The position numbers were made by a program, and so were the translations under genes. Source: Candidatus Omnitrophota bacterium (lineage in GTDB: Bacteria; Omnitrophota; Gorgyraeia; Zapsychrales; JAKLDJ01). From it: a DNA stretch of 64,000 nucleotides. The stretch is from NCBI GenBank assembly GCA_022703585.1, contig JAKLDJ010000002.1, forward strand, positions 155,413-219,412, written 5' to 3'. A model generated the notes under the pieces. The model did not search any database, was not told the origin of the DNA, and worked only from the letters and a program-made list of their open reading frames with translations. How positions within the stretch are numbered: the stretch's first letter is position 1; every line of letters starts with the position of its first letter. Of the stretch, positions 16,742-61,904 are shown piece after piece.

Positions 16742-16751
16742 AGAAACTCCC

Positions 16752-16900
16752 TTCTTTAATGAGGCCGCAACTTACGGAACGTCAGTGAACGTAAGTTGCG
16801 AGCCGAATTTAACCCCGCACCCTAGCACTTCAGGGAACCTAAACACTGGGTGCGGGGTAAGTTCAGCCAAATAACTTAGCTCGCTACCGCTCGCTAAGTT
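16752..16900. other. Cluster of three consecutive perfect-stem hairpins in the fba-ilvC intergenic region, none followed by a U-tract
   Basis: gcaacttacg...cgtaagttgc (10 bp stem), ccccgcaccc...gggtgcgggg (10 bp stem, 25 nt loop), aacttagc...gctaagtt (8 bp stem). Confidence 0.6.
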
Positions 16901-16914
16901 ATGGCTTCACTTAA

Positions 16915-18267: not shown

Positions 18268-18385
18268 TTAAACCCGGATTTTGCCTGCCCGTCAAATGGC
18301 GTGGTTGTGCAAAATCCGCCCTCCGGGCCGCTACGGCGCAACCTTTTGCGCCTAGCGGGGTTAACCCCACCAAAGGTGGGGTTAA
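18268..18385 (+). repeat. Copy A of a ~100-120 bp multi-hairpin intergenic element; fills the pfkA-fba spacer
   Basis: aacccgGattttgc...gcaaaatCcgccctccgggccgctacggcgcaaccttttgcgcctagcggggttaaccccaccaaaggtgggg; about 85 percent identical to the reverse complement of 29866-29962, with a compensatory G-C to A-T change in the long stem. Confidence 0.7.
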
Positions 18386-28883: not shown

Positions 28884-29747
28884 CTACTTCTTATCTCTGG
28901 TCAGCCGCACCTTGGTGGGCCCGCGTTTATCCGGCTCTTTCAAGACAACGGCAGAGGCTTCGATAGATTCGCTCTCTTCTTTGATAATTTCCTCTTCCTC
29001 GGCGGAAATACCGGCCTCTTGTTCGGCCTCGAGTCTTTCCCGAACGCTCTCGCTGGCTAAAAATGCCTTTTTCCCCTCGATAATACTATCCGTAATAATT
29101 GATGTAATCAGCTTGATGGATTTAAGTGCATCATCATTGCCGGGAATAGGAAAAGTGATCAAATCGGGATTGCAATTGGTGTCGATCAAACCAACGATAG
29201 GAATACCGAGTTTGGTGGCTTCTTTTACAGCGTTTTCTTCCTTGTTGGAATCAACGATAAAAATCGCCTGGGGCAGACGGCCCCCCATATCCCGAATACC
29301 GTTAAGATCGCGAGCAAGCTTATCTTTTTCCTTGGTCAAAAGGGCAACTTCTTTTTTGGTTAGCTTCTCAAAGGTACCGTCTTCGCCCATCCTTTCGATC
29401 GATTTCATCCGCTCGACTGATTTCTTGACCGTCTGGTAATTGGTCATGAGCCCCCCTAACCAGCGGTAGCGGACATAAAAAATGCCGGCCCTTTTGGCCT
29501 GCTCTTCCATTACTTCCTGGGCCTGTTTTTTGGTGCCCGCAAAAAGAATATTACCTCCCTTAGCAGCCACATCATGGAGAAAATCGCATGCCGCATTAAG
29601 GCATTCGACTGTCTTTTCCAAGTCAATAATGTAAATGCCGCTGCGATCGCCAAAGATGAACCTCTTCATCTTGGGATTCCAGCGTTTTGTCTGGTGCCCA
29701 AAGTGGACACCCGCTTCCAGCAATTTCTTGATTAATTCCTCAGCCAT
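28884..29747 (-). CDS. rpsB: 30S ribosomal protein S2 with acidic C-terminal extension
   Basis: 287 aa; [20 protein letters not shown]-terminus. Confidence 0.9.
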
Positions 29748-29865
29748 TTCTCCTCCATAGTTTCAACGTGAATTTTTAGTTGACCCCGATTTTGCATTAC
29801 ACTTTTATTTCTCAATTATCAATGAAAATCAAAATATAATTCAAAATCTACCTCCGATCACCTTC

Positions 29866-29962
29866 GTCGGGGTTAACCCCACTAGGCGCAACACGTTGCG
29901 CCGCAGCGGCCCAGAGGGCGAATTTTGTCCAGCCATCGGCTGGACAAAATTCGGGTTGAAGT
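29866..29962 (-). repeat. Copy B of the multi-hairpin intergenic element, inverted relative to copy A, ~120 bp upstream of rpsB
   Basis: Reverse complement reads caacccgaattttgtccagccgatggctggacaaaattcgccctctgggccgctgcggcgcaacgtgttgcgcctagtggggttaaccccgac; 15 bp perfect long stem. Confidence 0.7.
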
Positions 29963-29974
29963 AGTATACCCAAT

Positions 29975-30140
29975 AATCGATTTCTTTGCAACTTTTTATT
30001 TCAGATCGGGTTGATTTTCAAAATCGGTTTTTTTGCGAAAAATCACCCCAATTCTACCCAAAAATGCTATTTTTCCCAAATTTCACCCCTAAATCATACC
30101 CAAAATACCCCACTGAGTATAAGTATTATATAAAAGGGGG
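29975..30140 (-). repeat. Degenerate tandem repeat with regularly spaced G3-4 tracts on the minus strand (C-tracts on plus), in the msbA 3' region
   Basis: Minus strand reads GGGGTATTTTG GGTATGATTTAG GGGTGAAATTTG GG...TTTTTG GGTAGAATTG GGGTGATTTTT: six units of ~11-13 nt. Confidence 0.5.
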
Positions 30141-30141
30141 A

Positions 30142-31971
30142 TTACATCTTAAACTGGGTCTCATACAGACGCTGGTAAAGGCTGCAGGAAGCCATCAAAT
30201 CCTCATGCTTGCCTAACCCGACTATTTTACCTCCTTCAAGCACTACGATTTTTGTGGCTTTTTTGATAGTAGATAACCGATGGGCGATGCAGATAACCGT
30301 CCTGCCCTCCATAAGTTCATCCAGAGCCTCCTGGACAAAACGCTCCGACTCAGAGTCAAGCTGCGAAGTCGCCTCATCCAAAATAAGGATGGGCGGATTC
30401 TTTAATATTGCCCGGGCAATGGCAATGCGCTGCTTTTCTCCTCCTGAAAGCCGAAAACCCCTGTCGCCGATACGGGTATTGTATCCGTCAGGCATGTTCA
30501 TGATAAATAAGTGAGCAAAGGCCTTTTGGGCGGCTGACTCAATTTCTGTCATTGAGGCCTCTAAATTCCCGTAGGCGATATTGGCTCTTACCGTGTCATT
30601 AAACAGAATAGTTTCTTGGGTCACTAACCCCATCTGGCCGCGCAGCGATTTAAACGAGACCTCTTTTAAATCAATGCCGTCGATTGCAACACTACCGACT
30701 GACGGATCATAAAAACGGGGGACAAGATTAACTAACGTAGACTTTCCCGCTCCCGTGGGCCCGACAATAGCAACGAGATCGCCGACCTTAATTTCAAGAT
30801 TAATATCTTTGAGGACCTGGCCGGATTCGGTGTCATAGCCAAAATTCACCCCGCGGATGTCAATATTCTGACTGATAACCGGCAAATCCTGGGCATTCAC
30901 TTTCTCGACGACGCTTGGGCGAGAATCCAGGACTTCGTAAATCCTCTCGCTGGCCGCCAGGGCCTGCTGGTTAATCACGTGGACATTGGCTAATTTCTTT
31001 AGGGGGCTAATCAACGACATGGTGGAACCGAAGAAAAGCACAAAAACGCCGAACGAAATACGGCCGTTAATAACCTCGCTACCCATCCAATAACAGATGG
31101 CAACGCCGAAAAAAGCACCGATCAATTCGGTAATGGGCCCCAAGGCCAGATTGCGCTTGATGGATTTCATTTTCAGTTTATAAAAATCCTGGTTTTGTGA
31201 TTTAAACCGGTTCGATTCATATTTTTCCATGCAAAAAGCCTTAACGATGCGCACGCCCGAAATCGTCTCGATCAAAAGCGAATTGATATCGGCCATTTTT
31301 TCCTGGGAGCTGCGTGATATTTTCTTTAATCTCCTGCCAATGTATTTCATGGGAAGGGCAACGACAGGAAATAAGATAAGAACAACAATGGCCATTTTGG
31401 GAAGGGACATCTTAAAACAAACAAACATCACAAAAGAGGCAAATATAACGATTCGAAATGACTGATAGACAAGGTCCGTGACGCCATAGGAAACGGCATT
31501 TTCAACCACCTGCACATCATTGGTAATGCGGGCAATGAGCTCGCCGCTGCGCTTCTTGCTGAAGTAATCTAAGGAAAGGTTTTGTATGGTCTCATAAAGC
31601 CGGGAACGCATATCCCGCATAATGCGCTGGGAGGCATCGTTCATCAAATACCCGTACCAAAAACCGAAAAACCCTTTTAAAATAAACATAATGATAACAC
31701 CGACGATCATCCACTTTAAAAGGGTCATGGAATCGGTAGCGTTAATTTTCTCGATAATGGACGCCAAAAAGGCAGGGATTTTCCCGGGAACAATGATTTT
31801 ATTGTTGCTGAGGATTTTATCAGTCATCGGCACCAGCAAAGACAGCTGGAAACCGTCAAAGACAGCCGAGAGGAACATGCATAAAGTAGCCAGCCCCAGG
31901 ACTTTGGTATTACCCTTTAAAAACCGTAAAAGCTTGAGATAATTTTTCATGGATGCGGTGCATATTACCAT
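30142..31971 (-). CDS. msbA: ABC transporter, fused permease/ATPase (MsbA-like lipid A/lipid exporter)
   Basis: 609 aa; six N-terminal TM helices; Walker A GPTGAGKST and signature LSGGEKQRIAIARAIL. Confidence 0.8.
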   Translation of the reverse strand: MVICTASMKNYLKLLRFLKGNTKVLGLATLCMFLSAVFDGFQLSLLVPMTDKILSNNKIIVPGKIPAFLASIIEKINATDSMTLLKWMIVGVIIMFILKGFFGFWYGYLMNDASQRIMRDMRSRLYETIQNLSLDYFSKKRSGELIARITNDVQVVENAVSYGVTDLVYQSFRIVIFASFVMFVCFKMSLPKMAIVVLILFPVVALPMKYIGRRLKKISRSSQEKMADINSLLIETISGVRIVKAFCMEKYESNRFKSQNQDFYKLKMKSIKRNLALGPITELIGAFFGVAICYWMGSEVINGRISFGVFVLFFGSTMSLISPLKKLANVHVINQQALAASERIYEVLDSRPSVVEKVNAQDLPVISQNIDIRGVNFGYDTESGQVLKDINLEIKVGDLVAIVGPTGAGKSTLVNLVPRFYDPSVGSVAIDGIDLKEVSFKSLRGQMGLVTQETILFNDTVRANIAYGNLEASMTEIESAAQKAFAHLFIMNMPDGYNTRIGDRGFRLSGGEKQRIAIARAILKNPPILILDEATSQLDSESERFVQEALDELMEGRTVICIAHRLSTIKKATKIVVLEGGKIVGLGKHEDLMASCSLYQRLYETQFKM

Positions 31972-32982: not shown

Positions 32983-34097
32983 TCATCGTTGCCGGAGAAG
33001 CCTCCGGCGATATGCACGCCGCTTGCCTCGTACAAGAAATCAAATCTATCAATCCAAATATCCGTTTCTCGGGGTTAGGCGGCAAAAAGATGCAGGCTGC
33101 CGGCGTCGAGCTTTATGAAGATTTGACTAATCTGGCAGTCGTCGGATTCGTGGAAGTCTTTAAGCATATACGAGAGTTTAGAAGACTTTTTTATCTGATC
33201 CTTAAGAAAGCGCAAGAAACAAAAGCCGATGCCGTCATTTTAGTCGATTATCCCGGATTTAATTTAAGGCTGGCTCGGGAATTAAAAAAGCTCGGCATCA
33301 AGGTCATTTATTACATCAGCCCCCAGGTCTGGGCATGGAAAGAAAGCCGGGTTACGCTCATCAAGCAATGCACGGATAAAATGCTCGTCTTTTTTGAATT
33401 CGAGAAAGAATTTTATGCGCGCCGCGGTTTAAATGTGGATTTTGTGGGTCACCCGCTACTCGATTCCATCAAGGTCGAAACTTCGAGAGAAAACTTTTTA
33501 CAGTCAATCGGATTCTCTAAAGATAAACGAACAATCGCCGTTTTGGCCGGTTCGCGCCGCAAAGAAGTCGAACAACTCCTTCCTGTCATGCTGGCAGCCA
33601 GCCAAATCCTTTACACCAAAAACAATCAAATACAATTCCTGGTCTTAAAATCGCCGACAACCGATAAGAAAACCGTCGAAAAATTCGTCAATCAAAGTCG
33701 ATTGCCGGTAAAAATCATCGATGGCCAAACGTATGATGGAATTAACGCTTCGGATTTTTGTATGGTAGCGTCGGGAACAGCCACCTTGGAGACAGCCATT
33801 TTACAGAAACCGATGGTGGTGGTTTACAAAACTTCTTTTTTAACCTGGGTTTTAGCCAAGCTTTTCGTCAAGATACCCTGTATCGGATTGGTCAATGTGG
33901 TCGCAGGAAGAAAAATCGTTCCCGAATGCGTGCAGTTTGATGCGACAGCTGAAAAAATAGCCGAAAATGTAAGGGCCATTTTTGACGTCCCGTCAAAAAT
34001 GGCCCAGGTCAAATCCGACCTCGCCCGCGTTAAATCTTCCCTTGGCGCCCCCGGCGCCTCAGCCCGTGCCGCCGAGATTATTTCTCAAATAATATAA
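32958..34097 (+). CDS. lpxB: Lipid-A-disaccharide synthase
   Basis: 380 aa from the MEKSRKHLIIVAGEASGDMHAA start (the ORF track begins at an upstream in-frame ATG); GT19 N-terminal signature; overlaps the Gfo gene by 25 nt. Confidence 0.85.
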   Translation: MEKSRKHLIIVAGEASGDMHAACLVQEIKSINPNIRFSGLGGKKMQAAGVELYEDLTNLAVVGFVEVFKHIREFRRLFYLILKKAQETKADAVILVDYPGFNLRLARELKKLGIKVIYYISPQVWAWKESRVTLIKQCTDKMLVFFEFEKEFYARRGLNVDFVGHPLLDSIKVETSRENFLQSIGFSKDKRTIAVLAGSRRKEVEQLLPVMLAASQILYTKNNQIQFLVLKSPTTDKKTVEKFVNQSRLPVKIIDGQTYDGINASDFCMVASGTATLETAILQKPMVVVYKTSFLTWVLAKLFVKIPCIGLVNVVAGRKIVPECVQFDATAEKIAENVRAIFDVPSKMAQVKSDLARVKSSLGAPGASARAAEIISQII

Positions 34098-54980: not shown

Positions 54981-55029
54981 ATTGAAAAAGCTTGGGGGCC
55001 GTTCGACCTTTAGTCGAACGGCCCCCAAG
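54981..55029 (-). terminator. Rho-independent terminator (17 bp perfect stem) downstream of the glycine-zipper lipoprotein gene; T-tracts on both sides
   Basis: cttgggggccgttcgac-cttta-gtcgaacggcccccaag followed by CTTTTTCAATCTTT on the minus strand and CACATTTTTCT on the plus strand. Confidence 0.75.
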
Positions 55030-55075
55030 CACATTTTTCTCCGGGCACCTCAAGCCAAAAAGCCCGTCATAACAA

Positions 55076-56901: not shown

Positions 56902-56989
56902 ATTTATCCTCTTAAGATAGCGTCCGGGCGCCCCGCCTTTAAGGCGGGGCGCCCGGAGTCAGTCCCTCTACTATTAAACTTATTTTTTC

Positions 56990-59238: not shown

Positions 59239-59282
59239 GGAAATAAAAGCATGGGGGCAATCCGCTTTTGCGGATTGCCCCC
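59239..59282 (-). terminator. Rho-independent terminator downstream of the aldehyde dehydrogenase gene
   Basis: gggggcaatccgc-tttt-gcggattgccccc (13 bp stem) followed by ATGCTTTTATTT on the minus strand. Confidence 0.75.
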
Positions 59283-59379
59283 TTGGATTAAAATTTATAA
59301 GTTCATACCGTCAAATAACATACGGTAATTTTAACGTTAATTATCAAACAGGGCAAGAAAAATAATCCCGGCCTTATAA

Positions 59380-60959: not shown

Positions 60960-61904
60960 TTAAGGCGTAGGGCTTGGCGCTAACATCTTGTCCGAAGAAG
61001 ATACGACAGGCAAACGTATCTTCTGGCCCGTGTAGATTTTTGAGTCACTTAGCCCGTTTAATCGCATCAATTCTGCAACCAAAGTGCGCGATCTTTTCGC
61101 AATGCCAAAAAGGGTATCACCTGACTGAACAATATAAACCTTGGCGGAATTGTTTTCCTTTAAAGAATCATCCGATTGTTTGAGCCCGGGTGGCGGAACA
61201 TTGCGAATCAATTTAGCACCTAAAGACTTTTTAAGATAACGGGCATAGCTTGTTTTTCTTAAAAGCGGCTTAACCGCGTTAATGGGCACGGCAAAATTAA
61301 GATTTTGCCCTTTAGGGTGGCTGGCGACCGTAACCCCAACCACTTCGCCTGCCAGATTAAACAACGGACCTCCACTGCTACCCGGCGATAGCGGTACGCT
61401 GATCTGTAAAAGCCCAACACCTTTTGAGGTATTACGCAACGAACTGATCAATCCGTCGCTAACCGTCTCTGCAAGACCCAGGGGATTACCAATCGTCACC
61501 ACCCGCTGGCCCACCTTAACCGAATCGCTGTCGCCTAATTTAACCGTGGATAGATTTTTCCCGCTGATCTTAATCAGGGCAATGTCATTAATCGTATCAA
61601 TGGCAACAATTTTTACCTTAAGATAGCCGGTGTTATTCTTTAATTTAATCACAATCCTTTTCGCCTTATCCAAAAGATGGTAATTCGTTACAATAAATCC
61701 ATCGGGTGTAATGACAAAGCCCGTTCCGGCTCTACTGTTCTTTCCGGATCGGTCAGCCGCCCCTATCAAAACAACCGCATCGGCATTTTGGGAAAAAAGA
61801 TTGGAGATTGCCCGGTCGTCCGTCTGGGCGAGCCCCGGCGCGGCGCTGCCAAGCAGCGCCGCGCCAAAACTCATAAGAATAAAAACTTTAATAAGTCGAT
61901 CCAT
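60960..61904 (-). CDS. Secreted trypsin-like serine protease (S1C/DegP-like, no PDZ) with C-terminal LysM domain; start taken at internal MDRLIK
   Basis: Signal peptide MDRLIKVFILMSFGAALLGSAAPGLA; GNPLG and GSSGGPL catalytic motifs; LysM YIVQSGDTLFGIA. The longer ORF to 62042 would overlap the next gene. Confidence 0.75.
   Translation of the reverse strand: MDRLIKVFILMSFGAALLGSAAPGLAQTDDRAISNLFSQNADAVVLIGAADRSGKNSRAGTGFVITPDGFIVTNYHLLDKAKRIVIKLKNNTGYLKVKIVAIDTINDIALIKISGKNLSTVKLGDSDSVKVGQRVVTIGNPLGLAETVSDGLISSLRNTSKGVGLLQISVPLSPGSSGGPLFNLAGEVVGVTVASHPKGQNLNFAVPINAVKPLLRKTSYARYLKKSLGAKLIRNVPPPGLKQSDDSLKENNSAKVYIVQSGDTLFGIAKRSRTLVAELMRLNGLSDSKIYTGQKIRLPVVSSSDKMLAPSPTP

Follow-up and report, generated by a model that had tools for sequence, protein, structure and literature searches.

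The region studied here lies in a 64,000-nt stretch of Omnitrophota DNA (the window), in the spacer between the 3' end of an msbA-like ABC transporter gene and the operon rpsB-tsf-pyrH-frr. According to the list of open reading frames and to homologues, all genes around this spacer are encoded on the minus strand, and those homologues of RpsB and Fba that carry names belong to Omnitrophota, with identical Fba sequences on contigs of 1.2-1.6 Mb from several samples. With the start of rpsB at 29747 and the stop of the msbA-like gene at 30142 the spacer comprises 394 bp, and both the size of about 400 bp and the distances to rpsB and msbA given in an earlier sequence-only reading of this DNA are correct. 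The spacer harbors a structured, MITE-like element (copy B) next to a conserved rpsB promoter, and a second copy (copy A) is located between pfk and fba (Table 1).

Table 1. Features at the msbA-rpsB and pfk-fba spacers (window positions)
Feature	Positions	Strand	Remark
Copy A, 109 nt	18273..18381	-	small hairpin and right unit, without left terminal hairpin
Copy A target-site duplication TTTAA	18268..18272	-	minus-strand reading
Copy A target-site duplication TTTAA	18382..18386	-	minus-strand reading
rpsB (ribosomal protein S2)	28884..29747	-	first gene of rpsB-tsf-pyrH-frr
Copy B left target-site duplication GTTGA	29779..29783	+	direct repeat of 29955-29959
Full-length copy B, MITE-like, 171 nt	29784..29954	+	family orientation corresponds to window plus strand
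Left unit	29784..29872	-	inverted and degenerate; terminal hairpin CCCCGATTTTG...CAAAATC with expanded AT-rich tip
Promoter-like TTGAAT-18-GATAAT	29815..29844	-	directed toward rpsB, in AT-rich expansion of left hairpin; 9/12 matches, consensus only
Small hairpin of left unit	29852..29872	-	from folds
Central palindrome GGGGTTAACCCC	29869..29880	.	links both units
Right unit	29873..29960	+	four-way junction of P1, P2 (GGCGCAA/TTGCGCC), P3 (GCCC-AGA-GGGC) and P4 (16-bp stem)
Terminal-repeat hairpin (P4)	29919..29953	.	perfect 16-bp stem
Copy B right target-site duplication GTTGA	29955..29959	+	minus strand reads TCAAC
rpsB promoter TTGCAA-17-TATACT	29963..29991	-	promoter scan; conserved in L002, L003, L052, L053, L054
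G-run/A-T-tract segment	30026..30135	-	outside element; Tandem Repeats Finder, period 40 x 2.1 copies
msbA-like ABC transporter	30142..31971	-	

Orthologous loci were retrieved via RpsB and Fba homologues. In four relatives whose RpsB is 70-71% identical (L003, L052, L053, L054) the gene order is kept and the site is empty; the promoter, reading TTGCAA-17-TATACT-ACTTCAAC, is directly followed by a leader of 25-70 nt. In the window, 176 extra bases come after the rpsB promoter before the common leader picks up again, and copy B makes up the entire block that is additional to these four empty sites. Copy B begins with CCCCGATTTTGC and ends with CAAAATTCGG, and taking it out together with one of the flanking repeats restores TATACTACTTCAACTAAAAAT, which corresponds to the flanks of the sites in L002 and L003. 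Once the block and one repeat are taken away, the spacer reads exactly as the relatives would predict, and the element therefore extends over 29784-29954; the coordinates 29866-29962 proposed in the sequence-only reading thus describe its right half and fall short of the whole. The G at 29955 can alternatively be taken as the last base of the element, in which case the duplication would be 4 bp long (TTGA). No open reading frame of at least 50 amino acids was found inside copy B, the only one nearby (29986-30216, plus strand) being outside the element. The same reading had interpreted the element as a possible insertion and had named a comparison of orthologous spacers as a check, with the same sequence in all relatives as the refuting outcome. 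This comparison was run, and since empty alleles were found at the exact point of insertion in the four relatives, the interpretation as an insertion holds.

Contigs of this species from several samples carry both window copies without any change. Copy B is fixed in every sample examined of the species and is therefore tolerated. A short contig of the same species (L051; JGI Ga0179937_1202463) stops within the element, 95 nt upstream of rpsB, as is common for assemblies at repeats. The rpsB promoter next to the insertion site reads GTTGCAAA-N-AAAA-N-GATTATTGGGTATACTACTTCAAC in the relatives. Together with its A-rich upstream stretch (GAAATAAAAAGTTGCAAA...GATTATTGGGTATACTACTTCAAC) it is near-invariant in L002, L003 and L052-L054 although RpsB is only about 70% identical, a conservation that is unusually strong for non-coding DNA.

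The existence of a second copy in the window, also noted in the sequence-only reading, was confirmed by a 77-nt match to copy B at 18302-18378 (84% identical, inverted orientation); for the 39-nt core pattern no occurrence is expected by chance. Copy A reaches a covariance-model score of 93.5 bits. The pfk-fba spacer that contains it measures 154 bp in the window, compared with 40 bp in L042 (a 97% relative) and 32 bp in L046 (81%). The site is empty in both, and the element plus one TTTAA accounts for the exact length difference. In three further samples of this species copy A has the same sequence (100% identity). Its termini consist of CCC/GGG only, instead of the full terminal repeat, and it appears to be an internally deleted derivative. 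A clean duplication around a copy that lacks one terminal repeat requires either that the deletion took place after insertion or that a partial terminal repeat is sufficient. Intrinsic terminators were predicted neither in the msbA-rpsB nor in the pfk-fba spacer.

Further members of the family were recovered from metagenomes. Our first search pattern (GGGGTTAACCCCNCTAGGCG) had zero matches; the second one yielded 38 loci, 31 of which are chance matches in GC-rich or coding DNA and seven of which are real relatives (four from Ga0247727, two from Ga0208373, one from OBEQ011786701). The four Ga0247727 copies are located on four contigs, with mutual identities of 92-94% over 119-125 nt. Beside one of the copies an Mdh protein is encoded, and all of its homologues that carry names are from Omnitrophica. 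All nine copies were retrieved with a pattern located within the element, which entails an ascertainment bias in the conservation of P3 and its flanks; the conservation of GCGGCCC..AGGGCG.ATTTT was imposed by the search and has no value as evidence. The pattern has no influence on the covariation seen in P2 and at the RR/YY positions of the terminal hairpins. A scan of genome contigs with TTGCGCCGNAGCGGCCCNGAGGGC produced one chance match only, in a coding region of Solirubrobacterales, and no matches were obtained by BLAST against plasmid and phage collections or in viral contigs. In Rfam (Rfam 15) the window copies had no match at the gathering threshold or at E<=10, and the seven relatives had none at E<=0.1. 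The lack of Rfam matches also argues against tRNA-like RNAs, known ribozymes, riboswitches and ribosomal protein leaders. An integron attC site, considered in view of its core-site consensus, was rejected because the neighbors are housekeeping genes and not cassettes.

All seven relatives reach further 5' than the part of the element that was described first (29866-29962), and a common plan emerges from the full-length copies. It starts with a target 5-mer and CCCRRATTTTG-hairpin-CAAAATYY, a small GC hairpin, GGGGTTAACCCC and a variable hairpin, and continues with GCCC-NNN-GGGC, RRATTTTG-hairpin-CAAAATYYGGG and the same 5-mer again. The nine copies are 109-202 nt in size and have no coding capacity. 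Terminal inverted repeats of 11-12 nt (CCCRRATTTTGC) are present at both ends of all eight full-length copies, with 12 of 12 positions identical in L038, and each of them forms the foot of a hairpin; these ends seem not to resemble Tn3-type ends. Direct repeats of 5 bp flank six of the nine copies perfectly and the other three, including L032 and L038, with a 1-nt ambiguity. The flanking 5-mers are TTAAA (L009, L026, L034), TTCAA (L019), TTTAT (L036), TTTAA (copy A) and GTTGA (copy B), and since several of these pairs (TTCAA, TTTAT, GTTGA) are non-palindromic, they represent direct duplications rather than the arms of a stem. The CN_hydrolase-mdh spacer supplies another empty site, the third, with 17 and 29 bp in two relatives versus 150 bp in L009. 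Genes next to the copies include fba, mdh, leuB, greA and a ferredoxin gene; with respect to these neighbors the copies take both orientations, four of them being sense, four antisense and one located between convergent genes.

One family copy (L034, 3086-3757, minus strand) lies within the 3' end of leuD. The leuD reading frame runs through the entire element and thereby gains a foreign tail of about 70 amino acids; without the element it would end in ...NYIKERKMK*, with the stop overlapping the leuB start. Such an insertion, tolerated in frame, resembles the Rickettsia palindromic elements.

On either strand the region of copy B folds into a closed four-helix junction (-58 to -60 kcal/mol; z = -5.9 and -5.2), and none of 200 shuffled sequences was as stable. 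The long perfect stem that had been noticed in this copy is real and slightly longer than reported, with 16 bp at 100% complementarity (29919-29934 and 29938-29953) around a 3-nt loop. From the right halves of the nine copies RNAalifold again derived the four-way junction, in which 7 of 27 pairs show compensatory changes; 92% of the cells of the consensus structure are paired versus 23-50% with slid partners, and the covariation score of 0.195 (0.077 in shuffles) was reached by none of 500 shuffles. A covariance model (R1) was built from the right half and the window was searched with filters off, which gave 91.8 bits (E 3e-25) for the right unit of copy B and no third copy in the window; a weak match at 16809-16910 is a different structured insert. 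R1 also matches the left halves of L009, L019, L026, L032, L034 and L038 in inverted orientation (25-42 bits, E 5e-10 to 7e-5), with only 14-15 bits (E about 0.1) for the left half of L036 and no report at E<=10 for that of copy B. As the left halves match the model of the right unit in inverted orientation, the element is an inverted doublet of one unit of about 80 nt, which folds as a four-helix junction with perfect stacking. The palindrome GGGGTTAACCCC between the units occurs in two exact copies in the window, or three when one mismatch is allowed (0.09 expected by chance), and pairs with both outer ends in the folds; it looks like a TTAA target with a right end directly before it and a left end directly after it. 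The strongly conserved bases of the family are all helical, loops and tips vary freely, and the junction is devoid of unpaired bases, which speaks against an RNA that binds a ligand or acts as a catalyst and in favor of recognition at the DNA level, either as duplex or folded.

MITEs are small, lack open reading frames, carry terminal inverted repeats, duplicate their AT-rich intergenic targets and are present in multiple copies (PMC10969869, PMC9330008, PMC4133298). Because the element shows the first four of these defining features and is probably multicopy as well (two copies in the 64-kb window, four on four contigs of Ga0247727), we file it as a MITE in the sense of PMC10969869 and PMC9330008: all nine copies stay far below 500 bp and are free of a transposase gene, and flanking duplications combined with empty sites were found for copy B, copy A and the L009 copy. 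Taken together, the evidence makes it very probable that the element represents a new MITE family, one member of which was transposed next to the rpsB promoter, where its effect is likely passive and not that of a dedicated S2 regulator. According to this model the non-coding element would insert into AT-rich 5-mers such as TTAAA and duplicate them, and its mobilization would be brought about in trans by a DDE-type transposase encoded elsewhere. A pair of the terminal repeats at IS-like spacing was found in none of the retrieved loci. The IS1380 family generates duplications of 4-5 bp and has CC ends, which for the transposase is a lead only.

The element shares with bacterial MITEs (Correia/CREE of Neisseria, ERIC, RUP, QMITE) a length below 500 bp, the lack of coding capacity, terminal inverted repeats and target duplications, and likewise AT-rich intergenic targets, a probable presence in multiple copies, stable folds when transcribed and a frequent location beside promoters or within operons (PMC10969869). 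Unlike these it duplicates 5 bp rather than TA, its fold consists of two inverted four-way junctions and not of one long hairpin, it has no sequence similarity in plasmid and phage collections or in Rfam, and its host belongs to the Omnitrophota. Tn3-derived TIMEs are also non-autonomous and are flanked by 5-6-bp AT-rich target duplications, but by their description they are set apart by inverted repeats of 38 bp related to the ends of the Tn3 family (PMC4133298), whereas those of our element comprise about 12 nt, with a CCC start and a GGG end.

The inverted doublet of a hairpin-bearing unit is shared with REPINs and BIMEs, which fold as a long hairpin or as a 'clover' of local hairpins and whose singlets and partial copies persist as remnants, comparable to copy A (PMC3116915). 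The element could thus be REP/REPIN-like or a palindromic element of the IS200/IS605 type, which moves as folded single-stranded DNA and whose hairpins are recognized by a tyrosine (HUH) transposase such as RAYT. Compensatory changes that keep the hairpins, better folding of one strand in seven of the nine copies and the extragenic location of both window copies are in agreement with such an origin. We nevertheless consider it very unlikely, because HUH chemistry gives no target-site duplication and inserts beside a fixed tetra- or pentanucleotide, while our element is bordered on both flanks by the same 5-mer, this 5-mer varies between copies, and the empty sites hold a single copy of it. In addition, REPINs are tied to RAYT transposases, and no RAYT gene was found in the annotated parts of the window; a GTAG or CGTC head or tag is not visible at the feet of the hairpins; and the four-helix units of about 80 nt are much larger than those of REPINs. 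The prospects are poorer still for a cis-regulatory RNA (an S2-binding autoregulatory leader or a riboswitch) that controls rpsB-tsf, and this reading seems to us extremely improbable. Like autoregulatory leaders of ribosomal proteins (that of rpsB in Gammaproteobacteria, for instance), the element would be a structured RNA located downstream of the rpsB promoter and upstream of the ribosome-binding site and start codon, its fold on the mRNA strand is very stable, and in three relatives a ribosome-binding site and an ATG follow 10-25 nt after the element. Unlike such leaders it does not accompany the gene: five relatives with the same promoter and gene order lack it, and the empty sites largely refute this reading. 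It also occurs beside unrelated genes, in antisense orientation in half of the cases; the helical conservation and the fully paired junction leave no conserved unpaired nucleotides as a candidate binding pocket; and Rfam provides no matching leader. For the same reasons the regulatory platform for ribosomal protein genes envisaged in the sequence-only reading is not supported, and the element is not a dedicated S2 regulator.

A MITE may have been co-opted after its arrival, such that its fold is selected as an mRNA stabilizer, processing site or insulator, or its junction as a transposition substrate. Co-option of the fold in either form would be compatible with a MITE, and we give it a limited but appreciable chance. 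Between lineages hairpin sequences were replaced wholesale with their pairing kept, both copies are fixed and unchanged in every examined sample of the species, and the rpsB leader of the sister species carries a different hairpin-rich insert at the corresponding 5' position. It is further known that transcripts of MITEs form stable stem-loops that affect expression (PMC10969869). On the other hand, there is no orientation bias relative to transcription among the nine copies, processes at the DNA level can also keep or regenerate palindromes, and the sample is small. The full replacement of hairpin sequences with retained pairing goes beyond what neutral decay of a MITE would lead one to expect and suggests that a single strand may be selected in its folded form. 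The minus strand of the family folds better in seven of nine copies, which is not explained by a purely double-stranded mechanism; fold energies and G-U counts give a weak and inconsistent bias with respect to the strand of action. More far-reaching, and in our view unlikely, is the idea that the four-way junction is the working part and that the element depends on its structure, either for movement as folded single-stranded DNA or for selection as folded RNA. The units of about 80 nt would then be perfectly stacked and Holliday-junction-like, with GGGGTTAACCCC as an internal splint that unites both ends and the duplicated target. If true, this would be a mode of mobilization or regulation that has not been described for bacterial MITEs.

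To return to the MITE at rpsB, one copy would have inserted just downstream of the conserved rpsB promoter, 5-9 nt from its -10 hexamer, and judging from the position of this promoter the whole element would constitute the 5' end of the rpsB-tsf-pyrH-frr leader. With the junction at this distance from the -10 hexamer, transcripts should start with the element and carry a leader of about 290 nt. The first 170 nt of this leader have a predicted fold of about -78 kcal/mol on the mRNA strand, the mRNA-strand fold at rpsB amounts to -87.5 kcal/mol (z -6.9), and the rpsB ribosome-binding site is unpaired in the predicted fold. The likely passive consequence would be a long and very stable 5' structure, which may stabilize the mRNA. 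The AT-rich expansion of the left hairpin is unique to copy B, and with its promoter-like sequence it possibly supplies a new internal promoter, which we regard as a candidate.

In the closest relative (L002; RpsB 96%) the element is absent, and an unrelated GC-rich insert of 106 nt is located 2-3 nt from the site of copy B. Two different inserts within 3 nt of each other in sister lineages fit a local hotspot at the rpsB leader, and the insertion hotspot suspected in the sequence-only reading is supported in this respect; we speculate that AT-rich, often melted promoter-proximal DNA is its cause. The insert in L002 (7448-7553) is hairpin-rich, lies between ACTT and CAAC of the rpsB leader, is not bordered by a target duplication and includes GAAGTAG, which repeats the flank CTACTTC in inverted form. 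Repeats of it were not detected among the sequences retrieved.

In kind the element is an ordinary one, a MITE; what sets it apart is that it forms a new family with an unusual fold. It traces the odd, excessive length of one spacer in a compact Omnitrophota genome to recent transposon activity, offers a clean example of a filled and an empty site at the start of an essential ribosomal operon, and adds a MITE family to an uncultured phylum for which our literature searches found no report of MITEs. It also serves as a warning that an intergenic motif with a strong and covarying fold can, in genomes of this type, be mobile DNA and not a riboswitch or leader. The architecture, a doublet of junctions, is mildly unusual and could help to identify the transposase that moves it.

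The low-complexity G-tract segment that adjoins copy B is real. Six G-runs, with spacings of 10, 12, 12, 18 and 10 nt and alternating with A/T tracts, are located between the msbA stop and the rpsB promoter. This segment is common to L002 only and is absent from the four more distant relatives. The sequence-only reading had regarded the proximity of the segment and the element as meaningful; it looks coincidental, because L002 has the segment without the element. The segment is helically phased, as is curved DNA upstream of promoters, and the minus-strand RNA is capable of forming G-quadruplexes. At its start a strong promoter-like TTAAGA-16-TATAAT (10/12; 30125-30152) overlaps the msbA stop.

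Other structured sequences are scattered over the window. Several perfect or near-perfect hairpins of 13-18 bp (54990-55030, 56923-56957, 33973-34005, 59250-59285, 61837-61865) are unrelated in sequence to the element and may be terminators or other small inserts. The fba-ilvC spacer (16742-16914, 173 nt) contains three further hairpins, including TTACCCCGCACCC...GGGTGCGGGGTTAA, which echoes the theme of TTAACCCC...GGGGTTAA. This spacer sequence is also present, with an extra insert of about 50 nt, in the 97% relative, whereas the 81% relative has a spacer of only 24 nt; it probably goes back to an additional, older insertion event, by either a related element or a different one.
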